Assembly (NCBI GenBank): GCA_034422595.1
Contig: DAOUJO010000007.1
Coordinates: 212,040 to 276,039, forward strand
Origin: Dehalococcoidia bacterium
GTDB taxonomy: Bacteria > Chloroflexota > Dehalococcoidia > Lucifugimonadales > Australimonadaceae
Length of the DNA stretch: 64,000 nucleotides
Reading direction: 5' to 3'
Under the pieces are notes generated by a model. The model was not told the origin of the DNA. It worked only from the letters and a program-made list of their open reading frames with translations, and searched no databases. This document shows, piece after piece, positions 6,058-57,046 of the stretch. The position numbers were made by a program, and so were the translations under genes. Position 1 is the first letter of the stretch; every line of letters begins with the position of its first letter.

Positions 6058-7587
6058 ATGCTCGAGGCCACCACAAGCGCGCTACAGCAGCTGTTCAGCC
6101 TTGGACCGCTGCTGGCGTTCTTCCTCGTCATCCCCTACGCGCTGCTCGGCGGGCTGATGCCGGGCACGAACCTCCCGCTCACCGTCATCCTGCTCGGCTT
6201 CGCTCACCGCATCGACCCGCTGGTGGCGCTGGTGCTGGTCACCGCGAAGGACGCCGCCGGCGACATCACGGAGCCGGTGCCATCGATCCTGATGGGCATT
6301 CCGGGAGCGCGCGCGGCGCAGGCCACGATCCTCGACGGCTACCCGCTCGCGCAGCAGGGCAAGGCTGCGTACGCCCTCGGGGCGAGCTACACGACGACGC
6401 TGGTCGGCGGGCTGGTCGGAGCGGCAGTGCTCTACGCGTTCCTGCCCGTCGGGCGCGAAGTGCTCAAGCTGCTCGGCTCGGCGGAGTTCTTCCTGCTGTC
6501 ACTCGCGGGAATCGCGGCGGTTGCGGTGGTGAGCAGCGGAGCGCTGGTGAAGGGACTGCTGACTGCGGCGTTCGGCATCACCATCGCGTGCATGGGCAAC
6601 TCGTTCACGGGCGAGAACGTCCGCACCGACTTCGGCATCGACTACCTGTGGGACGGCGTGCCGCTCATCCCGTCGGTTGTCGGGCTGTTCGCCGTGCCGG
6701 AGGTCGTGGGCCTCGTGGTGAGCAACAAGGCGATCGCCCGCGAACACGCCGAGGACGTGCTGCACGGCAAAGCGTCGCAGCAGCAGGCGCTGGAAGGCAT
6801 GCGCGAGGCGTTCCGCCACAAGCTGCTCATGGCACGCTCCTCGATCATCGGCGTGATCGTCGGCGTCATACCGGGCGTCGGCGCCAGCGCGGCGCACTGG
6901 ATCTCCTACGCGCAGGCTCGCCAGACGGAGAAGGGCGCGACCCAGACGTTCGGAACGGGCGACATCCGGGGAGTCATCGCGGCGGACGCGCCCAACAACT
7001 CCATCGACGGTGCCGAGCTCATCCCGACGCTTGCGTTCGGCATCCCGGGCTCCGGCGGCAAGGCCATCTTCCTGGCCCTGCTCATCCTGCTGGGGTTCGT
7101 ACCTGGCCCGTCGATGCTGAACGAGCATCTGGACATCACCATCGCGCTGGTGTTCACGATCGCGCTTGCCAATGTTGTGGTCGTGCCGATCATGTTCCTG
7201 TTCGCCGGGACCATCGCCAAGTTCACGGCGCTGCGGCCCACGCTCATCGCTCCGTTCGTGGCGGGCGTGGTGCTGCTGTCGGCGTTCCAGTCGTCCGCCA
7301 GCATGGCCGACCTCGGCATCGTGGCGGCGTTCACCGCGCTTGGCCTGTTCATGAAGGCGTACGGCTGGCCGAGGACCCCCATCCTGATCGCGCTCGTGCT
7401 GATCCCGACGGTGGAGAAGAATCTCTGGACGGCTTCGCAGGCCTACGGCTGGGAGATGCTCCAGCGGCCGCAGTTCCTGCTCATTCTGATCATCGGGGTC
7501 GGGCTCGTTGTCTGGACGGCCAGGACCCAGCGCAGCGCAGAGGTCGCGGCGCAGTCGCAGGGTTTCAAGGAAGCGACGACGGACTAG
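6058..7587 (+). CDS. tctA: Tripartite tricarboxylate transporter large permease (TctA family)
   Basis: About 509 aa polytopic membrane protein. Internal ATG 6058 has an AAGGGG RBS. It is followed by small membrane and Bug/TctC-like genes. Confidence 0.8.
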   Translation: MLEATTSALQQLFSLGPLLAFFLVIPYALLGGLMPGTNLPLTVILLGFAHRIDPLVALVLVTAKDAAGDITEPVPSILMGIPGARAAQATILDGYPLAQQGKAAYALGASYTTTLVGGLVGAAVLYAFLPVGREVLKLLGSAEFFLLSLAGIAAVAVVSSGALVKGLLTAAFGITIACMGNSFTGENVRTDFGIDYLWDGVPLIPSVVGLFAVPEVVGLVVSNKAIAREHAEDVLHGKASQQQALEGMREAFRHKLLMARSSIIGVIVGVIPGVGASAAHWISYAQARQTEKGATQTFGTGDIRGVIAADAPNNSIDGAELIPTLAFGIPGSGGKAIFLALLILLGFVPGPSMLNEHLDITIALVFTIALANVVVVPIMFLFAGTIAKFTALRPTLIAPFVAGVVLLSAFQSSASMADLGIVAAFTALGLFMKAYGWPRTPILIALVLIPTVEKNLWTASQAYGWEMLQRPQFLLILIIGVGLVVWTARTQRSAEVAAQSQGFKEATTD

Positions 7588-9558: not shown

Positions 9559-10881
9559 ATGCTGAGCGTTGAAGAGAACGAACTGATGACCGATATCTCA
9601 CCGGGGACGCCGATGGGCAACCTGGTGCGGCGCTACTGGATACCCGTCATGCTGTCGGAGGAGCTTCCCGAACCCGACGGCAACCCGATGCGGGTGCGCC
9701 TGCTGTGCGAGGACCTCGTCATCTTCCGGGACTCGTCCGGACGCGTGGGGCTGCTCCCTGAGCGCTGCCCGCACCGGCGCGCCTCGCTCTACCTCGGCAG
9801 GAACGAGGATGACGGCCTCCGCTGCATCTACCACGGTTGGAAGTTCGACGTCACCGGCCGCTGCGTCGACATGCCGAACGAGCCGGAGGTGAGCACGTTC
9901 AAGGAGAAGATCAGGCCGTCCGCGTACCCGTGCAGGGAAGCGGCGGGGATGATCTGGGCGTACATGGGCCCGCGCGCCGAGCCGCCGCCGCTCCCCCACT
10001 TCGAGTGGATGGACGTGCCGGAGGAGCAGCGCCAGCTGGCGTCGTTCCATCGCGGATGCAACTGGGTGCAGGCGCTCGAGGGCGACATCGACACGAGCCA
10101 CTCCGGCTTCCTGCACGGCGTGCTGGAGCGCACCGCCGACGCCGTCCACACCTGGCGGAAGGAGCACCCTCCCCTCCTCGACGTCGTCACCACGCGGTAC
10201 GGCATGATGTACGGCGGACGGTACGGCGACATCGATGCCCGGCAGGCCGACAGCGGCACGGCGTCGACCTACTGGCGGGTGAGCAACTTCCTCTTCCCGT
10301 TCTACACGTTCTTCCCCAGCCGCCCCAACGGGCTCGTGCCCGGTCACATCTGGGTGCCGCAGGACAACCACAACACGATGGTGTGGTCGGTGGGCTGGAA
10401 CCCGGTGCGCGAGCTCGAACAGAGCGGAGCGTGGCGGGCGCGCTCCGGCGCGATGGTCGGCGAGTACGAGCCTGAGTCCGCCGACGGCATGGGCCGCTGG
10501 CGCCCGAAGGCGAACTGGTACAACGACTACCTGCAGGACCGAGATGCCCAGCGGACGGACACGTTCACCGGCATCCCCACCATCCCGCTGCAGGACCAGG
10601 CGGTCACCGAGACGATGGGGTCGATAACCGACCGCTCCCACGAGCACCTTGGCCAGTCCGACGCGGCCATCATCCGGATGCGGCGGCGCCTGCTCGGCGC
10701 GGTGAAGGCGCTGCGCGACGACGACGTCGAGCCGCCCTGCGTCGACACGCCCGAGTGGTACCACATACGTTCGGCGTCGGGGACGATGCCGGCGGACGCC
10801 GACTGGATCGAGGAGCTCGGCGACTGGATGGACGCGCGCACGCTGGAGATCCCCGGCGTGGGGCTGCCGTCGCCAGTTTAG
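9559..10881 (+). CDS. Rieske [2Fe-2S] aromatic ring-hydroxylating/demethylating oxygenase alpha subunit (phthalate-family type)
   Basis: Rieske motif CPHRRASLYLGRNEDDGLRCIYHGWKF. N-terminal TPMGNLVRRYWIP box. GGGAGG RBS. Confidence 0.85.
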   Translation: MLSVEENELMTDISPGTPMGNLVRRYWIPVMLSEELPEPDGNPMRVRLLCEDLVIFRDSSGRVGLLPERCPHRRASLYLGRNEDDGLRCIYHGWKFDVTGRCVDMPNEPEVSTFKEKIRPSAYPCREAAGMIWAYMGPRAEPPPLPHFEWMDVPEEQRQLASFHRGCNWVQALEGDIDTSHSGFLHGVLERTADAVHTWRKEHPPLLDVVTTRYGMMYGGRYGDIDARQADSGTASTYWRVSNFLFPFYTFFPSRPNGLVPGHIWVPQDNHNTMVWSVGWNPVRELEQSGAWRARSGAMVGEYEPESADGMGRWRPKANWYNDYLQDRDAQRTDTFTGIPTIPLQDQAVTETMGSITDRSHEHLGQSDAAIIRMRRRLLGAVKALRDDDVEPPCVDTPEWYHIRSASGTMPADADWIEELGDWMDARTLEIPGVGLPSPV

Positions 10882-10899
10882 GAGCTGTGCGGCTCGACG

Positions 10900-10927
10900 G
10901 ACTCGACAGGCTCACCGCGAACGAACG
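10900..10927. repeat. TCGACAGGCTC-type REP-like intergenic repeat, copy 3
   Basis: GACTCGACAGGCTCACCGCGAACGAACG. Confidence 0.5.
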
Positions 10928-11026
10928 CGCTGCCCCTTCCAAGGCGGCGCGTTCCCGTTTCGCCGGAACAGGAAGAGCATGACACGTCATCCTGATGAAT
11001 AGTCCCATGCCGATGGAGGCCAGCCT

Positions 11027-11542
11027 GTGGACATCGTGATACGGCCCGAGACACCTGCCGATCTCCCCGCGGTCCAGGAGGTCATCGACCTGGCCTTCCC
11101 GGACGAGGACGTGAACGGATTGGCGGAAGCGTTGCGGGGGTCCGCAGAGTACATCCCTGAACTGGCCCTGGTGGCAGTGTGCGATGGGGTTGTGATCGGC
11201 CACATCATGTTCACCACCTCCCACATCGACGATGGGGACGAGTCCGTTCCCGCCCTGACGTTGGGGCCGCTGTCGGTGCTACCCGCAAAACAGCGGCAGG
11301 GAGTGGGATCCCAACTGGTCGAACACGGCCTCTCGGTCTGCCGGCGGCTGGGACATCGGATCGTCGTGCTCATCGGTCATCCGACGTACTACCCTCGCTT
11401 CGGTTTCGTGCAAGCCGGGCCGCTTGGCATTGAGGTGCCGCTCGCCATGTCCGAAGAGAGCCAGATGGTCCTGGCGCTCACGCCGGGAACCCTGGACGGC
11501 GTGCGAGGCCTCGTGCGGTTCTCGCCGGTTGTCTACATGTGA
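11027..11542 (+). CDS. GNAT-family N-acetyltransferase
   Basis: 171 aa. Acetyl-CoA motif QRQGVGSQLV. GTG start with GGAGG 8 nt upstream. Confidence 0.75.
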   Translation: MDIVIRPETPADLPAVQEVIDLAFPDEDVNGLAEALRGSAEYIPELALVAVCDGVVIGHIMFTTSHIDDGDESVPALTLGPLSVLPAKQRQGVGSQLVEHGLSVCRRLGHRIVVLIGHPTYYPRFGFVQAGPLGIEVPLAMSEESQMVLALTPGTLDGVRGLVRFSPVVYM

Positions 11543-13116: not shown

Positions 13117-13431
13117 GTGCCGCCTCTTAAGCCAGACCACATAAGCCCAACGCCGGAAGAATCGGCCGCCATTGAAGCCGCCATTGCCGGTGACCCAGAC
13201 ACCTGGGAAGCAACCGGTCCGCTGGTTCCCATCGCAAAAGCCGACCCTGAACTCCTCGCGATGTACCACGAGGGCAAGCTGACCATCGCGCCCTACCTCC
13301 GCAAGGAGCACCCCAAGACCCGCGTGACGATCCGCCTCGACGCTGATGTCGTGGCCCGGCTCCGCGTAGACGGCCCCGGCTGGCAGACCCGCGCGAACGC
13401 CGCACTCCGCGAGGCCGTGCTAGGGAAGTAG
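13117..13431 (+). CDS. BrnA/DUF4415-family antitoxin-like protein (no BrnT partner seen)
   Basis: GTG 13117 lies 2 nt after the UbiD stop. The C-terminus TRVTIRLDADVVARLRVDGPGWQTRANAALREAVL matches the DUF4415/BrnA pattern (vTiRLD..v...f...G.GyQTriN..Lr). Confidence 0.65.
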   Translation: MPPLKPDHISPTPEESAAIEAAIAGDPDTWEATGPLVPIAKADPELLAMYHEGKLTIAPYLRKEHPKTRVTIRLDADVVARLRVDGPGWQTRANAALREAVLGK

Positions 13432-13457
13432 GGATCTTACTTTTGGAAGGAACTTAC

Positions 13458-14912
13458 GTGGGAATACGAATACAACCGAGAGAGCTCCAAGTATCTGACG
13501 ATAGCCCATTCGAAAAGGACCTCCTCAGTCGCAACGATGCCATCGAGGTTCTCAGTCACATAATTCAAAACATCGAAGGGCCTTGCGTCATTGCGTTAGA
13601 TGCGCCCTGGGGAACGGGGAAGTCCACTTTCTTAGAGATGTGGAAGAAGTACCTAGGGAATCGCGGTTTTCCTGTGGTTAAGTTCAATGCTTGGGAAACA
13701 GATTTCGCTGAGGATCCCTTTATTGCCCTTACTGCAGAATTGACTGATGGTATACAAGAACATATGCCTCGCAGGAAAAAGGTGATAGTTAATCGACTGA
13801 GGGCACAGGCTGAGAGAATTCTACTGACCACGAGTTCGAATGTTATCAAGAATGTGACGCAAGGAATAGTTGACCCTGCGGCAATCATAGCAAAAAGCGA
13901 GACTAACTCCGAGTCGAAGTCGAGGATCGCAAATTATCGCGACCTGAAGGCCTATTTCTCTGAGTTCAGACAATCCTTACAGGATGCCGCGAATGCTCTC
14001 CGGCCAACCAGGGACACTCCTCCGTTAGTTGTTATAGTCGATGAACTTGACAGATGCCGGCCTTCTTACGCTGTTGAATTGCTAGAGGTAGCCAAACACC
14101 TGTTCTCAGTAGATGAGATAATCTTCGTGCTCGCTATCAACCGGTCAGAGTTGTCCCACTCCGTAAGGGTTGTATACGGGAGCCGTTTTGACGCCGAATC
14201 CTACTTGCGCAGATTCTTCGATATAGATTTCCTTCTCCCTGACCCTGACCGACAAGATTTTATCACGGCGATGATTGATGAAGTCGGCATTAGTTCCTAT
14301 TTTGAACGTACCGCAGACCGTAGAGCATCCTTCGAACGAGACTCCATACAAGACTATCTTGTGAAGTATTTCAATACATCCGACCTCAGTTTGCGGAGTA
14401 TCGCGCAGTCTATTCATCACTTCGGTTTGGTTTACGCTTCACTTGCAAGCGATCAGCGCTCATTCATTACAATGGCTACAGTTGCCTTGATTCTGCGGAC
14501 GATGAATATTGACCTCTATCGCCGTTTCGTTGAGCACCGAGCATCTGACAAGGACGTAGTCGACTATCTAATTGAAAACAGGAAACCAAATCGTTTCGTT
14601 GTCGATAGATCGGATGCACAGTTTGAGGCATTGCTCATAGCTGCTGGCCAAGAAGATAACAATTGGGCGTTCAAGGAATTTGACGCATCTCCCTTGCTCA
14701 TCCATTACAAGGCATTGATAGCTGCGTCTCCATCTCAGGACGATTCCCGTGACCCAGTTGTGGGTTATGCTAGGGCAGTAGTCGAGCTAGCAACTAGGTT
14801 CTTAACCTCCCATAGGCATGAACCAACCTTCGGGTTTCGCCATGCAACACAACGCATTGAACTTATATCGCGTGGTCTTTTGGACCAACAAAATGACGAC
14901 AACTCTTGCTAG
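13458..14912 (+). CDS. KAP-family P-loop NTPase (soluble variant, no TM insert)
   Basis: Walker A DAPWGTGKSTFL, KAP-typical FNAWETDF, and Walker B VVIVDELDRCRP. GTG 13458 has GGAAGG 7 nt upstream; the ORF-track TTG 13443 is an alternative start. Strongly low GC. Confidence 0.85.
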   Translation: MGIRIQPRELQVSDDSPFEKDLLSRNDAIEVLSHIIQNIEGPCVIALDAPWGTGKSTFLEMWKKYLGNRGFPVVKFNAWETDFAEDPFIALTAELTDGIQEHMPRRKKVIVNRLRAQAERILLTTSSNVIKNVTQGIVDPAAIIAKSETNSESKSRIANYRDLKAYFSEFRQSLQDAANALRPTRDTPPLVVIVDELDRCRPSYAVELLEVAKHLFSVDEIIFVLAINRSELSHSVRVVYGSRFDAESYLRRFFDIDFLLPDPDRQDFITAMIDEVGISSYFERTADRRASFERDSIQDYLVKYFNTSDLSLRSIAQSIHHFGLVYASLASDQRSFITMATVALILRTMNIDLYRRFVEHRASDKDVVDYLIENRKPNRFVVDRSDAQFEALLIAAGQEDNNWAFKEFDASPLLIHYKALIAASPSQDDSRDPVVGYARAVVELATRFLTSHRHEPTFGFRHATQRIELISRGLLDQQNDDNSC

Positions 14913-25772: not shown

Positions 25773-26450
25773 CTAGCCCAGCAGGAGCGGTCCGACCTCG
25801 CTGACGTGCGAAACCTCATGGTCCGGCGGTTCGACGCCGTCCAGCCACGACTGCCCGTTCGTCACCCACGCGGTCGAGAGCCCTACCCCTTTCGCGCCGC
25901 CCATGTCCGCTGCGACGTCGTCGCCCACGAACAGCACTTCGCGGCTGGCAGGCATTCCGAGGCACTCGAGCGCCACGTGGAATATCGCGGGGTCGGGCTT
26001 CCGGCAGCCTGCCTCCTCGGAGACGATAACGCACCCGGTCAGCCCCTCCAGCCCGCGCGACCTGATCGTCAAGTGCTGCCCCGACGATGGTCCGTTGGTG
26101 ACGATGCCCCATGGCACTCCCGCAACGTTGAGGTCGTGCAGCAGCGGGAAGACGTCCGGGTCCTGCGGGAGGACGGCGCGCGACACCTGCAGGTACCACT
26201 CGGCCAATGCCTCGGGCGACAGTCCGATGCCAGGCCATTCTTCGAGCGTGCGGGCCATCAGCCGCTCCCTGCCCGCCAGGCCTCTTTCATCGAACGCGGC
26301 GAACTTCGCCTCAGCCTCGTCGGCGGACGCTGCGGCGCGCACGGCGGGCCACGTCTCGTGCAGCAGCCGCCCGGTCGCGCGTATCGCGCCGTCGCGGTCC
26401 CAGAGCGTGTTGTCGAGGTCGAAGAGCGCGGCGGTGTACAGGGGTGGCAT
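25773..26450 (-). CDS. HAD-superfamily hydrolase
   Basis: Motif I FDLDNTLWD. Motif IV FVGDD. Confidence 0.75.
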   Translation of the reverse strand: MPPLYTAALFDLDNTLWDRDGAIRATGRLLHETWPAVRAAASADEAEAKFAAFDERGLAGRERLMARTLEEWPGIGLSPEALAEWYLQVSRAVLPQDPDVFPLLHDLNVAGVPWGIVTNGPSSGQHLTIRSRGLEGLTGCVIVSEEAGCRKPDPAIFHVALECLGMPASREVLFVGDDVAADMGGAKGVGLSTAWVTNGQSWLDGVEPPDHEVSHVSEVGPLLLG

Positions 26451-27154
26451 CAGATAACTCCTCGGTTCATTTGCGCCTGCTCCGCTCCGTTGATCCCGAG
26501 CAGCATAGGCAGCAAGGCCATATCGGTGAACCGCACAACTCCCCTCCTGTCGGCGACGTCACACGTTGGGCTCGCAACGTATGCCAGTACCCTCATCCCC
26601 GCTGCCAGCCCGGCTTGAACGCCTGAATCGCTGTCCTCGACGACCACGCACTCCGACGGAGAGAACCCCATCGTCTCCGCGGCGTGCAGGAACACGTCGG
26701 GGTGGGGCTTGCGTCGCGGGACCATCCCCCCACTGAACAGCCGCCCTTCGAACCAGGCGTAGAGGCCCGTGAGCTTCAGCCGCTGTTCTATCGCAGGGAG
26801 AGAGCCGTTCGAGCCTACGCAGACCATTGTCCCCGAAGCGGCGACCGAACGCACTGCGTCAGCAACGCCAGGAACAGCACGGAGCCCATCTTCCACCGCG
26901 ACGCGTTCTGCTTCTTCGATAAGGCTCACTATGTTATCCGGCAACCGCACGCCCCAATGCTTAAGCACTGCATCCTGCAGGGTGTCAAACGAAACTCCAC
27001 GGAAGAGAGCGTGCAGCTCCTCCAACTCTGCTTGCAGGCCGTAACGTGCAAGAACAGTTCCCAGGGCACGCACGATCAGCGGTTCGCTGTCGACCAGCAC
27101 GCCGTCACAATCGAAGATGACCAGTCTGGGCATAGTCTGAGGATTGTTTGTCAT
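26450..27154 (-). CDS. HAD-superfamily hydrolase (beta-phosphoglucomutase/phosphatase-like)
   Basis: Motif I VIFDCDGVLVDSE. ATG 27154 is preferred to the TTG at 27187. Confidence 0.75.
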   Translation of the reverse strand: MTNNPQTMPRLVIFDCDGVLVDSEPLIVRALGTVLARYGLQAELEELHALFRGVSFDTLQDAVLKHWGVRLPDNIVSLIEEAERVAVEDGLRAVPGVADAVRSVAASGTMVCVGSNGSLPAIEQRLKLTGLYAWFEGRLFSGGMVPRRKPHPDVFLHAAETMGFSPSECVVVEDSDSGVQAGLAAGMRVLAYVASPTCDVADRRGVVRFTDMALLPMLLGINGAEQAQMNRGVI

Positions 27155-27213
27155 CGTTCGTTCCGGCGCGTAGCTGCGACTCCTCAAGGAGGAACGGCAA
27201 CCTGGTGCCTTCG

Positions 27214-27558
27214 CTATCCTCCGCCACTCAGCATGAGAACCATCAACGGCCAGAGCAATACAGAGAGGATGCCCTCAAGGCTGAACAGGTTGCCCATCCA
27301 CCTGTCGGAGTCCCAAAAGAAGTTTATGGGACCACCCCAGTAAGCCGGAACGATCAAGAATCCAAGAACGAGATAGGCGCCTGCTGAGACGGGGATGCCT
27401 ATCGGAATGAGGATTCTATTCCACCTCCACCCGCGCCATACATACGAGGGTGCCAACAGAGCGCACGAGAGCGTTGTCCACGCGACAAACATCGAGAGGC
27501 CAAAGAGAGGGCCACCGAAGTTCCGCGTGAAGAATCCATACGTCCAGAAGTCGTCCAT
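27214..27558 (-). CDS. Small hypothetical membrane protein
   Basis: 114 aa with 3-4 hydrophobic helices and no recognisable family. Lies in a lower-GC patch. Confidence 0.45.
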   Translation of the reverse strand: MDDFWTYGFFTRNFGGPLFGLSMFVAWTTLSCALLAPSYVWRGWRWNRILIPIGIPVSAGAYLVLGFLIVPAYWGGPINFFWDSDRWMGNLFSLEGILSVLLWPLMVLMLSGGG

Positions 27559-27662
27559 GGAACCCGCCTTCGCTCCTCAGCAGCCAACTTGTTCCCTGAC
27601 CGGGAGCAATCAGCTGTCCCAGTCTCGTCTTCGGTTCCGTAGGGTCCCGCCCACCGGGAAAG

Positions 27663-29183
27663 CTAGTCCTGGTGGTAGTACTCCAGGCCGAGGTGGGTGA
27701 TCTGCTCCTCGCCCATCATCCAGCGCAGCGTGTTCTTGAGCTTCGTCTGCTGGATGAACAGGTCGTGCTCCGGATAGAGGTTCCGCGCATGGTGCGGGCT
27801 CTTGAAGTAGAACGAGAGCCACTCCTGGATGCCGGACATCCCGGCGCGCTGCGCCAGGTCCATGAAGAGGATGAGGTCCAGCACGATGGGCGCGGCGAGG
27901 ATGGAGTCGGAGCAGAGGAAGTCAATCTTCATCTGCATCGGATGCCGCAGCCACCCGAACAGGTCGACGTTGTCCCAGCCCTCCTTGGCGTCCCCGCGCG
28001 GCGGGTAGTAGTTGATACGCACCTTGTGATAGGCGTCGCCGTAGAGGCCCGGGTACATCTCCGGCTGCAGGATGTGCTCCAGCACGCCGAGCTTCGACTC
28101 CTCTTTCGTGCGGAAGTTCTCGGGCTCGTCGAGCACTTCGCCGTCGCGGTTGCCGAGGATGTTGGTGGAGAACCAGCCGTTCAGCCCCAGCATCCGCGCC
28201 TTCAGCATCGGGCCGATGACCGTCTTCACGAGCGTCTGGCCGGTCTTGAAGTCCTTGCCGCAGACGGGTACGCCTCTGTCCCGCGCCAGCCGTTCGAGCG
28301 CGGGGATGTCGACCGTCAGGTTAGGCGCGCCGTTGATATACGGAACGCCCTCCTGCAGCGCGGCGTAGGCGTAGATCATCGACGGCGCGATGTTCGGGTC
28401 GCTCGCATGGAGCGCGGAGACGAAGCCCTCGATGTCCTGGTGTATCTCTTCCTCGGTAATGAATTTCTCGGTGGATGCGCACCAGATCATCACCAGCCTG
28501 TCGCAGCCGTTCTCAGCCTTGAACCGGCGCATGTCCTCGCGGATGGCGTCGACGGCGCTGAGCTTGCTCTCGACCGTTTTGACGTTCGCGCCCTCGATGC
28601 GCTTGGCGTAGTCCTGGTCGAAGACCGCCGGCATCGGCTCGATCGACCTGAGATAGTCCGCGATGGGTTCGATCTCGGCGTAGCGGTCGAGCACCCCTGC
28701 CCGGAGCGCCGCCTCGTACGCATTGTCCGGGATCGGGTCCCACGCGCCGAAGACCAGCTGGTCGAGCTCCGCGAGCGGTACGAACTCCTTGATGAACGGC
28801 GCACGGCTGTCAGTGCGCCTCCCGAGGCGGATCGTCGCCATCTGCGTGAGCGAGCCAACCGGCTCGCCGGAGCCGCGTCGTATGTGCTCGACGCCCGCGA
28901 TCACGGTCGACGATACGGCGCCCAGGCCCACCATCAGCACGCCGAGTTTCCCGTCCGCGGGTCCGACGCCATTCGAGACCGACTCCATGAAGTCACTCGG
29001 GTCGAGGCCGATGCCGCGCCTGCGGGCGAGGTCCATCAGCGTGCCGTGCCACTGCGCGGGGATCCTCCCCGTCCGCGCCCAGTGCTGCACGGTGCTCTGA
29101 CGCCTGCCCAGCAGTCCCGCGAGCGCGGACTGCCCTCCGAACCGGTCGATGATCTGCTTTGCGGTGTTGTGTTGTGTGCTCAT
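27663..29183 (-). CDS. Inositol-3-phosphate synthase (MIPS) family protein with an N-terminal Cro/YdaS-like HTH extension
   Basis: Residues from about 78 (KLGVLMVGLGAVSSTVIAGVEHIRRG...) to the end follow the bacterial/archaeal MIPS layout. Residues 8-60 (AKQIIDRFGGQSALAGLLGRRQSTVQHWARTGRIPAQW) look like a Cro/YdaS helix-turn-helix. Confidence 0.7.
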   Translation of the reverse strand: MSTQHNTAKQIIDRFGGQSALAGLLGRRQSTVQHWARTGRIPAQWHGTLMDLARRRGIGLDPSDFMESVSNGVGPADGKLGVLMVGLGAVSSTVIAGVEHIRRGSGEPVGSLTQMATIRLGRRTDSRAPFIKEFVPLAELDQLVFGAWDPIPDNAYEAALRAGVLDRYAEIEPIADYLRSIEPMPAVFDQDYAKRIEGANVKTVESKLSAVDAIREDMRRFKAENGCDRLVMIWCASTEKFITEEEIHQDIEGFVSALHASDPNIAPSMIYAYAALQEGVPYINGAPNLTVDIPALERLARDRGVPVCGKDFKTGQTLVKTVIGPMLKARMLGLNGWFSTNILGNRDGEVLDEPENFRTKEESKLGVLEHILQPEMYPGLYGDAYHKVRINYYPPRGDAKEGWDNVDLFGWLRHPMQMKIDFLCSDSILAAPIVLDLILFMDLAQRAGMSGIQEWLSFYFKSPHHARNLYPEHDLFIQQTKLKNTLRWMMGEEQITHLGLEYYHQD

Positions 29184-29244
29184 GGCAGGGCAATCTACCG
29201 ATAAAATCGTTAGGTGTCAAGCCGCCAACGCTCGCCGCGATTGG

Positions 29245-29250
29245 TATGAT
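29245..29250 (+). promoter_or_regulatory. Candidate extended -10 box (TGGTATGAT) 6 nt before the Rieske-2 ATG (leaderless-type)
   Basis: TTGGTATGATGCGCGCATG. There is no RBS. It lies in the 73-bp divergent spacer with the MIPS gene. Confidence 0.4.
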
Positions 29251-29256
29251 GCGCGC

Positions 29257-30555
29257 ATGCTGAGCCTCGAGGACAACGAACTCCTCACCCGCGTCGGCAG
29301 GGGCAGGCCGATGGGCGAGCTGCTCCGCCGCTTCTGGCACCCTGTCCTGCTGTCGAGCGAGCTGCCGGAGCCCGACTGCCCGCCGGTGCGCGTGCGGCTC
29401 ATGGGCGAGCGCCTCGTCGCCTTCCGCGACACGAGCGGCCGGGTCGGCCTGCTGGCCGAGGCCTGCCCTCACCGCAGGGCGAGCCTCTTCTTCGGGCGCA
29501 ACGAGGAGAACGGCCTGCGCTGCATCTACCACGGATGGAAGTACGACGTCGAGGGCCGCTGCGTCGACATGCCCAGCGAACCCGCGGGCAGCAACTTCGC
29601 CTCCAAGGTGCGCACGACCGCCTATCCGTGCCGCGAGACGAACGGCGTTATCTTCGCCTACCTCGGCCCGCCGGAGCTGCAACCGGAACTGCCAGGCATC
29701 GAGTGGCTCGGGCTGCCGGAGGGCCACGTCTACTTGACCAAGCGGTACGAGTTCGCGAACTGGGTGCAGGGACTCGAGGGCGGCATCGACTCCTGCCATT
29801 CCAACTTCCTGCACACCACCGTCCCGGCGTTCCGGCGGACGGCCGAGTTCTTCGACGGCCTCCGCGACAGGCTCCAGTTCGACGCGAGGCTGGTCGAATA
29901 TTTCATCAGCGACCTCTCTCCCCGCTTCTGCCTGCGCGACACCGACTACGGCGTGTTGATCGGGACGCAGCGCGACGCCGGGGAGGACAGCTTCTACTGG
30001 CGCATAACGCACTGGCTGCTGCCGCACGCGAACATCTTCGGAGGCGTGCGCGAAGACGGCCAGACCCGCCTCGGCAGAGGGCTCATCTGGTCCGCGGTCG
30101 ACGACCACACCACCGCCGTCTTCTCGGTCAGCTGGGCGCTGGAGTCGCCGCTGACGGAGAGTGAACGCGCCGCCTGCGAGGCGTTCAGCGGGGCCGTCGT
30201 TCCGGGCACGTCCATGATGGTGCAGACGATGGCCAACGACTACCTGATAGACCGCGAGCGGCAGGCGACGGAGACGTTCACCGGCATCGAGTCGCTCCAG
30301 GCGCAGGACCTCGCCGCCCAGGAGGGCATGGGGAGCATCGTCGACAGGACGGAGGAGCACCTCGGCTCGTCCGACTCTGCCATCATCCGCGTGCGCCGCG
30401 CCCTGATCCGCGCGGCCAGGGATCTCATGGAAGGCACCGAGCCCCCGCAGGCAACCCGCCCGGCCTCCTACAAGCTCCGTACCGTCGACCTCATCAGGCC
30501 GCGCGCCGACGGCTTCGACGGAGAGGAGATCGAGGCGCTCTGCCGGTTGGGGTAG
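29257..30555 (+). CDS. Rieske [2Fe-2S] oxygenase alpha subunit (paralogue 2)
   Basis: Internal ATG 29257 (MLSLEDNELLTRVGRGRPMGELLRRFWHP). Rieske motif CPHRRASLFFGRNEENGLRCIYHGWKY. Confidence 0.85.
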   Translation: MLSLEDNELLTRVGRGRPMGELLRRFWHPVLLSSELPEPDCPPVRVRLMGERLVAFRDTSGRVGLLAEACPHRRASLFFGRNEENGLRCIYHGWKYDVEGRCVDMPSEPAGSNFASKVRTTAYPCRETNGVIFAYLGPPELQPELPGIEWLGLPEGHVYLTKRYEFANWVQGLEGGIDSCHSNFLHTTVPAFRRTAEFFDGLRDRLQFDARLVEYFISDLSPRFCLRDTDYGVLIGTQRDAGEDSFYWRITHWLLPHANIFGGVREDGQTRLGRGLIWSAVDDHTTAVFSVSWALESPLTESERAACEAFSGAVVPGTSMMVQTMANDYLIDRERQATETFTGIESLQAQDLAAQEGMGSIVDRTEEHLGSSDSAIIRVRRALIRAARDLMEGTEPPQATRPASYKLRTVDLIRPRADGFDGEEIEALCRLG

Positions 30556-30569
30556 CACATCTCCACTAA

Positions 30570-30619
30570 CACCCGCCGCTTCCCTCATCGCCCTCTGCCC
30601 ACGTACCCTATGTTCATGC
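30570..30619 (+). repeat. Left copy of an about 50-bp imperfect direct repeat bracketing low-GC island 2
   Basis: ACACCCGCCGCTTCCCTCATCGCCCTCTGCCCACGTACCCTATGTTCATG. I counted 35/50 ungapped identities with 31796..31845. Confidence 0.55.
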
Positions 30620-31790
30620 AGTGGTAACGCCGTCGACAGCGCAGTGCTGACATCATATGCCGGAAGCCAAAGTCAACTCGTGTCAGGTGATTCGCGGCGT
30701 GCCACCAATGCAACTCGACACTCACACTGGGGAGCGACCGAATGACCAATGAGATTACAACATGCCGGATCTGGGGTGATGATTTCACAGCCGTCGGAGA
30801 AAACATCCCCGAGCTCGACAGGATTACAGTAACTGAGTCCCCTCGCGCAGGTGGAGGATACACAGTCTCTAGTGGCATCGTTCGACACCTCGACAATCTT
30901 GATGACGGAGGGAAGGCTCAGCTCACTTCTTGGTTAGTAGATCAGCGAGAGCAGGGAAATAACTGTCCCATTGTGACGGAGGAAGCAATTGAATACGCGA
31001 CCCGCAAGCATAGGCTTCCAGTTTATGAGCGTGCTGAAAGATTGCTTAAGTTCCTTTCCAAACAAACTATAGTAGCAGGAGAAGGCATTTCATTAATCAA
31101 ACACTCCAGGGGCTGGGAGGAGTTCCCTCAGAATTCAAACGGTCAGCCAATCTTTCCGGATGTGCCGACAAACCCGTTTGTGCTAGGTGCGATGGCTTGG
31201 TCAGAGTCCATTACAGATAATGAAGTTTCATATTTGGTCGACTACCTAGAGGATGAGGGTTGGGTACGGGAGACTTTCAAGCGAAGTGGTGTATTCTCTC
31301 GTTCGCATCGATATTTGGTCACTGTTGGCGGGCATGTCCGAATCTCTGAAGAGGCAGCCAATGTAGATTCTTCTCAAGTCTTTGTGGCAATGTGGTTCGA
31401 TGACTCCCTTTCGCAGGTATACGATGAAGGAATCGCACCTGCGATCTATGACTGCGGATTTGAGCCAAAGAGAATCGACCGCGATTCTACGGTCGACAAG
31501 ATTGATGATGCCATAATTGCAGAGATTAGGCGGTCACGCTTTCTTGTCGCTGACTTCACACATGGCGACGATGGAGCAAGAGGGGGAGTGTACTACGAAG
31601 CTGGTTTTGCACATGGTCGCGGCATTCCCGTTATCTTTACCTGCCGTGGCGACATGATTGAAAAGATCCATTTCGATACACGCCAATACGCTCATATCAC
31701 CTGGAACAGTACGTCTGAACTACGCGAAAGCCTACGCGATAGAATATTGGCGCGGATCGGAGAAGGTCCGACCATAGCGCAGTAGTGGGC
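30620..31790. other. Compositional (low-GC) island 2
   Basis: The 60-nt lines I counted are 38-52% G+C, against about 72% in a counted flanking line. Contains one ORF only. Confidence 0.75.
30742..31785 (+). CDS. Hypothetical protein: unassigned N-terminal region + winged-helix-like segment + C-terminal nucleoside 2-deoxyribosyltransferase/TIR-like domain
   Basis: 347 aa with GGGGAG RBS 8 nt upstream. The C-terminus VFVAMWFDD...RFLVADFTHGDDGARGGVYYEAGFAHGRGIPVIF fits the NDT/deoxyribohydrolase/TIR-like Rossmannoid pattern. SYLVDYLEDEGWVRE...YLVTVGGHVRISE is wHTH-like. Confidence 0.6.
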   Translation: MTNEITTCRIWGDDFTAVGENIPELDRITVTESPRAGGGYTVSSGIVRHLDNLDDGGKAQLTSWLVDQREQGNNCPIVTEEAIEYATRKHRLPVYERAERLLKFLSKQTIVAGEGISLIKHSRGWEEFPQNSNGQPIFPDVPTNPFVLGAMAWSESITDNEVSYLVDYLEDEGWVRETFKRSGVFSRSHRYLVTVGGHVRISEEAANVDSSQVFVAMWFDDSLSQVYDEGIAPAIYDCGFEPKRIDRDSTVDKIDDAIIAEIRRSRFLVADFTHGDDGARGGVYYEAGFAHGRGIPVIFTCRGDMIEKIHFDTRQYAHITWNSTSELRESLRDRILARIGEGPTIAQ

Positions 31791-31795
31791 TCGCG

Positions 31796-31845
31796 ACACC
31801 CGCCCCTTTCGCAGTCGTCCCCTGCCCGCGTACGCTGGTCCCATG
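31796..31845 (+). repeat. Right copy of the about 50-bp imperfect direct repeat bracketing low-GC island 2
   Basis: ACACCCGCCCCTTTCGCAGTCGTCCCCTGCCCGCGTACGCTGGTCCCATG. It begins 11 nt after the island gene's stop. Confidence 0.55.
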
Positions 31846-31890
31846 AACGGAGCGACGGATACAGGACGCCCACTCACCCCACCGGCGCGG

Positions 31891-32016
31891 GTGAGCAGGG
31901 ATGAGGCGGTTTCGGGTGGTTCTGAGCGGAAATGAGCTGCGGATGAGCGGTTTTGAGCAGTTGAACCGCTCATCGGAAGGGCCGGTCCCAGAGGTGGATT
32001 CCTGCCCGATGAGCGG
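31891..32016 (+). repeat. Array of helically phased nTGAGCGG motifs with an embedded perfect 11-bp inverted repeat
   Basis: TGAG cores at 31892, 31902, 31923, 31933, 31944, 31954 and 32010. An inverted copy has CTCA at 31969. Hairpin GATGAGCGGTT-N11-AACCGCTCATC spans 31942..31974. The shared 11-mer CAGAGGTGGAT is at 31989..31999. Confidence 0.7.
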
Positions 32017-32107
32017 TAATGCACAGCATTTCCCCCGGAACTTTCGCTGGCGCGCCGGTTTTGCTAGCCTCACACGCAGGCAGACACCAGATGCCACGGA
32101 GGAACGG

Positions 32108-33118
32108 ATGGCCACAACAGCAGGGACCGCGCAGGAGGAGTTGGCGCAGCTGACGCCGGAGGAGCTCTACGCCCTCTACATGGAGAAGCAGGTGAACTTC
32201 GGGCGCGCCGCGCTCGCGCTCGACAAGCGCAGGAAGCTGGGCCGCGTCCACGTCCCCGCCGAGGAGGCCGACGTACCGAACGCCGGGCCGAACCAGCGCA
32301 TGATCGTGGGGCCGGAGCTCGGCTTCAACGTCCACAACCTGCACGTCTTCACCTCGGGGCGCGCGGGCGGCTCGGAGCGCTACCACACCCACGGCGACGC
32401 GCTCAAGTTCTACGTCAAGGGCGGCGGACAGGAGCTCATCGAGGACGTGCGCTTCGACGTGAAGGTCGGCGACTTCTGCCACATCCCCGCAAACATCTGG
32501 CACGGCACCGAGAACCCGCACCCGGAACCGCTCGTCTTCCTCGCCGCGCAGCAGTTCCCCGGCACATACCGGCAGGTGCCGACGCCGTTCGTCCACCTCA
32601 CCGCGCCCCACAAGGCACCGGAGGTGAGCGACCTCTCGGACGAGGAGCTGGCAAAGCTGGAGCCGTGGCCGCTATACCTCCGCTACCTGGAGGAGCAGAT
32701 GGCGTTCGGGCGCATCGCGATGGAGATGCAGCGCAGGCGCGAGCAGAAGCGCCTCCACGTCCCGGCGGAGGAGGCGCCCATCATGGAGTGGGGCCCCGGC
32801 AGGCACCACGTCATATCGCCGGAGCTCGGCTTCGACATCTACTCGTTCCAACTGTTCATGGAGAACGTCCCCGCGCACACGGAGAACGGCGCGCCCCAGA
32901 CCTCCGGCGACGCCGTCCGCTACTACATCAGCGGCGAGGGCGTCGAGATCATCGGCGAGGAGCGCGTCCGCGTGCGCGCGGGCGACTTCACCTGCATCCC
33001 CGCAGGAACCCGCCACGAGACGACGAACGCGCACGACGAGGACCTGCGCTTCATCTGCTGGCAGCAGATACCAGGCACCTACGTGCAGGTGCACTTGCCC
33101 GTCCTGCCCGTGGAGTAA
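32108..33118 (+). CDS. Bicupin protein (gentisate/quercetin dioxygenase-like fold)
   Basis: ATG 32108 after GGAGGA. There are two internally homologous halves (LGRVHVPAEEA... / KRLHVPAEEA...). The first cupin has HTHGD...H metal ligands; the second is degenerate (QTSGD). Confidence 0.7.
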   Translation: MATTAGTAQEELAQLTPEELYALYMEKQVNFGRAALALDKRRKLGRVHVPAEEADVPNAGPNQRMIVGPELGFNVHNLHVFTSGRAGGSERYHTHGDALKFYVKGGGQELIEDVRFDVKVGDFCHIPANIWHGTENPHPEPLVFLAAQQFPGTYRQVPTPFVHLTAPHKAPEVSDLSDEELAKLEPWPLYLRYLEEQMAFGRIAMEMQRRREQKRLHVPAEEAPIMEWGPGRHHVISPELGFDIYSFQLFMENVPAHTENGAPQTSGDAVRYYISGEGVEIIGEERVRVRAGDFTCIPAGTRHETTNAHDEDLRFICWQQIPGTYVQVHLPVLPVE

Positions 33119-56620: not shown

Positions 56621-56682
56621 GCGTACTCCTAAGTAATGACGATGCTCAAAGCATAACAGCGCATCTGAATCCCCGTGAAAAA

Positions 56683-56807
56683 CCGCTCATCTGCGCTCAT
56701 TCCGCGCTCATCCACCTCTGTTTCCGCGCCCTGCTCAACCTCCCCAAATCGCGCGAAACCGCTCATTACCGCCTCATTCCCGCGCGAAACCGCCGATAGC
56801 CGCTCAC
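56683..56807 (-). repeat. Second, inverted copy of the phased ATGAGCGG-motif array
   Basis: CTCA cores at 56686, 56696, 56707, 56734, 56762, 56773 and 56803 on the + strand. The 11-mer ATCCACCTCTG at 56710..56720 is the reverse complement of CAGAGGTGGAT at 31989. Confidence 0.65.
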
Positions 56808-57046
56808 GCTATTGCACTCCTGTGACCACAACCTGCGGCGCGGCGTTCCGCCGGACAACCGCCGTAGCTGCAACATTCTGTAACACTTCGCAACATCCCT
56901 CTCCCGCGACCCGGCCCCGCGCCCGGGCAGCCCCACGCCGACGCCACGCCGCCGAAGACAGCGTACGCGGCCAGGGCGCGACCGCGAAAGAGGCGCGTGT
57001 CACCGATCGCAGCAAAGGGAGGGATGTGGAAGTGCGGCGATTGCGG

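Follow-up and report, generated by a model that had tools for sequence, protein, structure and literature searches.

We describe a single gene of foreign composition in a 64,000-nt stretch of a Dehalococcoidia bacterium genome (contig DAOUJO010000007.1, positions 212,040 to 276,039; the whole stretch is hereafter called the window). The gene (30742..31785, + strand) encodes a protein of 347 amino acids (aa) and is considered, with a probability of roughly 65%, to be a horizontally acquired, stand-alone sensor-effector N-glycosidase of the abortive infection (Abi) type, that is, a candidate single-protein defence gene. The feature was defined from its open reading frame (ORF), its homologues, its G+C content at third codon positions (GC3) and an AlphaFold2 model. 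Judging from sequence comparison, residues 1-205 are one conserved module, made up of a zinc-ribbon-like beta/alpha part and a winged helix, whereas residues 209-340 are, by sequence and model, a member of the nucleoside 2-deoxyribosyltransferase (NDT)/TIR superfamily with an intact predicted catalytic glutamate.

Module swapping and domain architecture

The strongest functional evidence for a defence role appears to be the swapping of modules among the relatives of this protein. Run against 1.84 billion proteins, a profile of residues 1-208 recovered 1,231 representative clusters, mostly of the same architecture. The N-terminal module was recognised with E values of 1e-39 to 1e-57 in fusions with other C-terminal domains, namely bSEFIR (protein P0207; PADLOC, 2.8e-64), TIR_2/PDC-S66/ThsB-like (P0193; PADLOC and Pfam), Abi_C, the HEPN part of AbiJ (P0129; PADLOC, 8e-15), and Schlafen AlbA_2 together with putAbiC/AbiP (P0195; PADLOC and Pfam). 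As toxic domains known or proposed from defence or Abi-type proteins fill it, the C-terminal position can be read as an effector slot, and the N-terminal half is presumably the common, sensing part.

In the protein described here, this slot is occupied by a domain of the NDT/DNPH1/CMP-hydrolase/TIR fold (aa 209-340; 31366..31761, +), a predicted N-glycosidase effector assigned by Foldseek, BFVD, Pfam and PADLOC. The whole protein was modelled with AlphaFold2 from an alignment of 50 sequences, with a predicted local distance difference test score (pLDDT) of 87.5, and the order of strands and helices in the model gives the C-terminal domain as a five-stranded, flavodoxin-like, three-layer alpha/beta domain. 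Foldseek searches against the PDB retrieved BcmB (4jen; TM-score TMt 0.72), DNPH1 (0.71) and NDTs with a probability of 1.0 and TMt values ranging from 0.55 to 0.73, and the TIR domains of SPARTA, SARM1 and AbTir ranked as high as the NDTs. The best BFVD match was a CMP/hydroxymethyl-CMP hydrolase (E=1.5e-5), with NDTs next. The PADLOC model PDLC00733 ('Effector/TIR') matched the protein with E=2e-9 and its relatives with 2e-17 to 4e-10, and a few homologues carry a precomputed match to the Pfam NDT family PF05014. In a Pfam scan with E values up to 10, no TIR (PF13676/PF01582), SEFIR or DUF4062 (PF13271) match was recorded, and the search of NCBIfam and the single-protein sequence search of the PDB gave no matches.

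The predicted catalytic residue is E286 of the GGVYYEAGFA motif (codon 31597..31599, +), identified by its invariance and by a profile alignment in which it coincides with the catalytic Glu of rat Rcl/DNPH1 (motif GVGYELGRA). Within 50 family members E286 is invariant, and D271, D312 and an FD(T/V) motif vary little or not at all; all four are kept in distant relatives from a Bacillus plasmid and a Streptococcus phage. The NDT/TIR-class domain with Glu at the catalytic position, proposed in the initial annotation from the letters alone, was thus borne out by Foldseek, by the Rcl alignment and by PADLOC, and the profile, AlphaFold and Foldseek searches placed it in the NDT/DNPH1/TIR fold.

The N-terminal module comprises two parts. 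Residues 1-90 (30742..31011, +), delimited by secondary structure and invariant columns, form four beta-strands and three helices with invariant C8, I10, W11, R35 and G38, and have no fold match among solved structures in the PDB. Residues 94-205 (31021..31356, +) were assigned to a winged helix-turn-helix, in which an insert of some 35 residues (aa 109-144) is variable: a profile search of PDB sequences matched this region to the N-terminal region of P1 ParA (E=0.015) and to MarR (E=0.1), and Foldseek on the N-terminal half, which gave a predicted TM-score (pTM) of 0.84 when modelled alone, returned only regulators of the GntR, MarR, IclR and FixK2 types (E 0.09-1). Support for the winged helix proposed around residues 150-205 is in this respect weak but consistent. 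The hhalign alignment with the Bacillus mycoides plasmid homologue (E=2.7e-47) runs from residue 52 to the end. Ahead of it, where the protein described here has its N-terminus, that homologue carries a CxxC...CxxC zinc ribbon in a stretch that itself is unaligned; given this ribbon, residues 1-50 are probably a degenerate zinc ribbon. The first 100 or so residues, left unassigned in the initial annotation, and the winged helix make up a single conserved module swapped between effectors. The Pfam scan of the 347-aa protein, which we take to have included the AbiJ_NTD3-5 models, gave no N-terminal match.

Genomic context, composition and spread of the family

Clustering of the five ORFs on each side of the gene, done for 81 loci, pointed to no single partner family, and no conserved non-coding element was seen beside the gene in some 80 homologue loci. 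The recurrent neighbours, among them components of restriction-modification (R-M) systems, were HsdS in 13 loci (in nine of them at -1 and in the same orientation, with hsdR downstream), HsdR in 11, HsdM, a HEPN-type NTase_sub_bind protein, N6_N4 methylases (some with HNH), Type ISP enzymes and AAA_21 ATPases. R-M clusters lay within five ORFs in 29 of the 81 loci and directly adjacent in 19, and the order hsdS-gene-hsdR recurred in divergent members. By one and the same procedure, R-M neighbours turned up in 31 of 78 target loci and in none of 22 control loci centred on Rieske genes (Fisher p=1.3e-4); the control set is small and drawn from different habitats, and the database used for its scoring was derived from the target loci. 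The R-M-linked copies have a median identity of 47%, with none at 80% or above, and their divergence indicates that they do not represent one clonal locus. Individual loci also contain, in the vicinity, MvaI/BcnI with a methylase, DndB, HNH and transposases. Taken with the domain shuffling, this context lends support to the candidate defence role that had been suggested.

In the window itself the gene stands out by composition. G+C is 0.46-0.53 over 30700-31800 and 0.66-0.76 on either side (200-nt windows); the gene as a whole has 0.494 against 0.669 for the remaining window, and its GC3 is 0.48, compared with 0.8-0.97 (around 0.9) in 46 host ORFs of the window, which confirms the abrupt low-GC single-gene island reported initially. 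The 347-aa ORF and its GGGGAG Shine-Dalgarno-like sequence (30729..30734, +; direct reading, 7 nt before the ATG) are present exactly as described, and the translation holds all peptide strings quoted there. The start codon at 30742 is the right one, since the N-terminus MTNEITTCRIWG lines up with the N-termini of homologues. A promoter and terminator scan of the island gave nothing above shuffled sequences. Upstream lies a Rieske/LigXa_C oxygenase gene (29149..30555) and downstream a gene for a two-Cupin_2 protein (32108..33118), then a Mo-hydroxylase; a GMC oxidoreductase and an inositol-phosphate synthase are encoded nearby. The adjoining genes of the window include no reverse transcriptase (RT), cyclase, SIR2 or ATPase, and the statement that the gene has no partner gene holds here as well as in about 80 homologous loci.

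The family is large and mobile. The protein search yielded more than 6,510 clusters (90% identity) among 8,000 candidates scored, and the best 120 matches listed are mostly full-length, with 45-72% identity, none of them named. At least 572 relatives were found in the genome scan, the best 80 of which come from Dehalococcoidia/Chloroflexota, Latescibacterota, Poribacteria, Acidobacteria, Nitrospirales, Binatia, Alpha- and Gammaproteobacteria, Opitutales and others; going by isolate names, many appear to be metagenome-assembled genomes from sponges. Relatives also occur on 52 IMG/VR viral contigs (some full-length), match PHROG 16139 (E=3e-40), and are found in the lysogeny module of Streptococcus phage SM1 (prophage) and on plasmids of Bradyrhizobium, Bacillus and Leptospira, those of Bacillus and Leptospira being named nucleoside 2-deoxyribosyltransferase by PGAP. 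In 83 of 84 loci (L001-L084) the gene is poorer in G+C than its flanks (median difference -0.098), pointing to ongoing transfer. Across host G+C contents of 0.48-0.72 the family genes keep to about 45-58%, an unusually uniform signature of foreignness. One relative (P0035), 72% identical over 81% of the query, is predicted to have 573 aa and to contain a DDE transposase domain (PF13701) as well, which may reflect a fused protein, an error of gene calling or an insertion sequence beside the gene.

Insertion site and flanking host elements

The foreign origin of the gene is shown directly by an empty site in a close relative. Contig L089 (MKWU01000970.1), with an accession that belongs to the metagenome of the sponge Aplysina aerophoba (PMC5099237, PMC5649159), shares 90-93% identity (about 91%) with the window over the inositol-phosphate synthase, Rieske, cupin and Mo-hydroxylase genes. 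Its homology ends at position 30553 of the window and picks up again at 31795, and the gene is absent. The proposed horizontal acquisition is therefore upheld by both GC3 and the empty site. Also absent from L089 is a lower-GC leader of 132 nt (30610..30741, +), which by this comparison arrived together with the gene and has no similarity to the upstream regions of about 80 homologue loci. At the same site, L089 carries a different segment of 200 nt (its positions 6394-6595) with a 59-aa ORF (MRDRQLINSIHNAGYVDWYRHG...) that has no Pfam match, and the site may accordingly be a recurrent insertion point.

The inserted segment is bounded by two copies of a host element of about 43 nt. The upstream copy (30569..30609, +), recognised as a direct repeat homologous to the single L089 copy, represents the duplicated target, and the downstream, native copy (31796..31836, +) begins 10 nt past the stop codon, within the contiguous L089 homology that starts at 31795. 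Over 41 nt the two are 76% identical, a score matched by none of 200 shuffles, and in L089 the one copy is continuous with the downstream flank. By this comparison, some 43 nt of host regulatory sequence were duplicated when the gene was inserted. The layout TTTCGC-18 nt-TACGCT inside the element looks promoter-like on direct reading and was not called by the promoter scan; the upstream copy may drive the gene.

The element is dispersed in the host DNA: a third copy is located upstream of a Cu/Zn superoxide dismutase (SOD) gene (56960-57001, -), and ATGAGCGG-type repeats come after the element upstream of both the cupin and the SOD genes. The shared host architecture (31796-32024 and 56660-57001, the latter on the - strand) consists of the 43-nt element (GACACCCGCC...CCCTGCCCGCGTACGCT) followed by ATGAGCGG/CCGATGAGCGGT palindromic repeats and is conserved in L089. 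The same element and palindromes ahead of the bicupin and Cu/Zn SOD genes suggest a common regulon. In the initial annotation the gene was thought to act alone or with the adjacent repeats. The first option stands, as no conserved partner was found; the second was rejected, because the palindromes at 31923-32024 and the 43-nt element are host DNA, an element with operator-like repeats, present in L089 without the gene as well as upstream of the Cu/Zn SOD gene.

Target duplications were seen in five loci, the window and four more. In two (L023 and L069), 42-67 nt of the 5' end of hsdR are duplicated upstream of the gene, and in two others (L021 and L024) the Type ISP gene lying upstream has its 3' end duplicated just past the stop codon of the homologous gene (around positions 9780-11030 of each of these four loci). 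The downstream copy begins 5-20 nt after the stop codon in every case. At the upstream junction of L069, a relic hsdS 3' end (...LVSGEVRV*) precedes the gene, which points to a donor fragment of the form hsdS'-gene-'hsdR captured by one homologous and one illegitimate crossover. On this basis, the spread of the family reads as homology-facilitated illegitimate recombination of a one-gene cassette, with staggered-cut insertion as the alternative. Integration at a tRNA gene was discounted, there being no tRNA in the window, as was a transposon or integron cassette: the insert is without transposase or integrase, and the repeats beside it, which vary from locus to locus, are duplicated host sequence.

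Elsewhere in the window, a second low-GC islet (13117-14912; G+C 0.48-0.55 against about 0.68) lies between metabolic genes and encodes a 489-aa KAP-family P-loop NTPase (13443..14912, +; PADLOC candidate PDC-S20, 5e-117; Pfam KAP_NTPase, 4e-41), with a BrnA-antitoxin-like ORF (13117..13431) just upstream. A moderately low-GC stretch (26450-27600; 0.56-0.62) contains a second HAD-hydrolase paralogue (26450..27187, -) and a hydrophobic ORF of 114 aa (27214..27558, -) that has no Pfam match.

Known systems, rival explanations and significance

The architecture had initially been regarded as impossible to map to a described system. However, NDT domains on Abi-type N-terminal modules were noted computationally in 2013 by Anantharaman et al., who described AbiJ-NTD modules fused to HEPN, TIR, restriction endonuclease or NDT domains and listed the NDT fusion (PMC3710099). 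AbiJ-like proteins resemble the present one in combining an N-terminal module with an interchangeable C-terminal toxic domain and in their frequent linkage to R-M operons, and the sister protein P0129 has AbiJ HEPN/Abi_C behind the same N-terminal module. They differ in that the PADLOC AbiJ model covers only the HEPN part of P0129 and not the module that is shared. A second group of relevance comprises single-protein NADase defences with a catalytic Glu, for which TIR, SEFIR and NIR domains provide the precedent (10.64898/2026.09.04.749371). The bSEFIR, TIR-only and NIR (Vulcan) systems are likewise single polypeptides with a sensor and a flavodoxin-like N-glycosidase domain that has one essential Glu (here predicted), they are associated with defence islands (same reference), and P0207 has the same N-terminal module before its bSEFIR domain. 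Unlike them, the protein described here has an effector of a different family, without Pfam TIR, SEFIR or DUF4062 matches, and in Vulcan the effector is N-terminal and not C-terminal. DUF4062/NIR was rejected, as it gave no match at E values up to 10; the Pfam TIR models gave none either, alongside the PADLOC 'Effector/TIR' match and the structural matches to TIR domains described above.

DNPH1/Rcl, the NDTs and the BcmB/MilB CMP hydrolases share with the C-terminal domain the fold (TM 0.55-0.73) and a G-x-x-x-E-x-G motif whose Glu is aligned to the catalytic nucleophile. In contrast to DNPH1 and NDT, to which its sequence similarity is marginal, the protein has an additional 205-aa N-terminal module and occurs in mobile, defence-type contexts; moreover, the phosphate loop of DNPH1, which we take to be of the GS(I)RGG type, is on direct reading not evident in FVAMWFDD. 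Of the sequence profiles, the 388-aa model PDLC00733 fits the C-terminal domain best (2e-17 for phage SM1 gp11, 2e-13 for the Bacillus plasmid protein), with the difference that the match is confined to model positions 256-376 and leaves the first 250 or so positions, presumably another sensor, unmatched.

Type II retron effectors (St85/Ec86) reportedly combine an N-terminal nucleic-acid-binding part with a C-terminal NDT-like domain, as in the Ec86 structures, and the domain had initially been linked to them. We could detect no such relation: hhalign of the family profile against an E. coli St85-family effector gave a probability of 0.2%. No RT or Rfam match occurs in the window, no conserved flanking RNA was found in about 80 loci, and RT was absent there from the recurrent neighbour clusters and from the 25 commonest Pfam families of directly adjacent ORFs. 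A Thoeris or CBASS operon was rejected as well, as partner genes are lacking here; a ThsA-type partner (SIR2/SLOG or Macro) is neither adjacent to the gene nor among the recurrent neighbour families. An experimentally characterised equivalent was not found in a literature search of limited reach.

By analogy with the single-protein TIR, SEFIR and NIR NADases, the N-terminal module would keep the enzyme domain inactive until an infection cue, phage nucleic acid or protein, binds. The activated enzyme would then cut an N-glycosidic bond. Its target would be an essential small molecule, most likely NAD+ or, failing that, (deoxy)nucleoside monophosphates, and the cleavage would halt the replication of the phage while the growth of the host suffers as well (growth arrest or abortive infection).

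Several observations weigh against this reading. The Foldseek E values against the PDB are no better than about 2e-3, the match to PF05014 (E=0.0034; residues 244-301 only) reaches 17.9 bits against a gathering cut-off of 28.8, and the domain profile finds rat Rcl/DNPH1 among PDB sequences with E=0.023; fold and sequence data do not tell NAD+ from nucleotides as substrate. The winged-helix assignment draws on weak matches, the domain fusions are known from predicted proteins alone, the neighbours of the gene in the window are purely metabolic, and the make-up of the control set tempers the R-M comparison given above.

Among the other explanations, it is rather unlikely that the protein is a non-abortive restriction factor, in which the zinc-ribbon/winged-helix half would bind DNA and the NDT/CMP-hydrolase-like domain would strip bases from phage DNA or destroy modified nucleotides (hydroxymethyl-dCMP). 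Such a base- or nucleotide-directed factor would complement the R-M systems with which it travels; it would suit the position of the gene between hsdS and hsdR, the resemblance of the N-terminal half to nucleic-acid-binding domains, the CMP/hydroxymethyl-CMP hydrolase as best viral structural match, BcmB and DNPH1 as PDB matches, and the proposal by Anantharaman et al. that Abi-linked NDT domains act on DNA (PMC3710099). However, the module is also fused to domains of the NADase type (bSEFIR, TIR) and of the RNase type (HEPN, Schlafen), which fits a generic sensor better, and no DNA glycosylase of the NDT fold was among the structural matches. Similarly doubtful is a combined proposal, by which the protein would be a nucleic-acid-guided N-glycosidase and not an NADase, restricting by base excision inside type I R-M operons, and its gene a one-gene cassette spread by one-sided homologous capture that duplicates a 40-67 bp target.

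We regard it as unlikely that the gene is a selfish toxin/addiction gene or mobile cassette that persists without protecting against phages, even though its compositional foreignness is universal, duplications flank it in five loci and it sits solitary among metabolic genes here. An antitoxin-like partner, a conserved small ORF or an RNA was not found, the element lacks a recombinase gene, its junctions resemble those of one-sided homologous capture (with the relic hsdS 3' end of L069), and the module is shared with validated defence effectors. Very improbable, finally, is a transcription factor whose Rossmannoid domain only binds a nucleotide ligand, or an ordinary nucleoside 2-deoxyribosyltransferase. 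The PGAP names of the Bacillus and Leptospira relatives and the combination of a winged helix with a nucleotide-binding fold would agree with this; the score below the Pfam NDT cut-off, the missing NCBIfam match, the lack of a conserved neighbour to regulate, the foreign codon usage, the absence of the gene from a close relative and the toxins that hold the C-terminal position in sister architectures speak against it.

The general kind of system to which a stand-alone sensor-effector N-glycosidase would belong is known, and nothing about it is mechanistically unprecedented; new are the sensor module, with some 1,200 clusters at 50% identity, and the distinct NDT-like effector family, a separate branch of the NDT/TIR superfamily. 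As the module is reused with bSEFIR, TIR, HEPN and Schlafen domains, the cue of one member, once identified, could account for how several systems are triggered. Pfam, NCBIfam and PADLOC 2.0 have no model for the family as a unit, which is therefore missed by current defence annotation, for example in the genomes of sponge symbionts, which are rich in defence genes. If our reading is true, a widespread single-gene defence family, present in many phyla and on prophages and plasmids, would be added to those already described.

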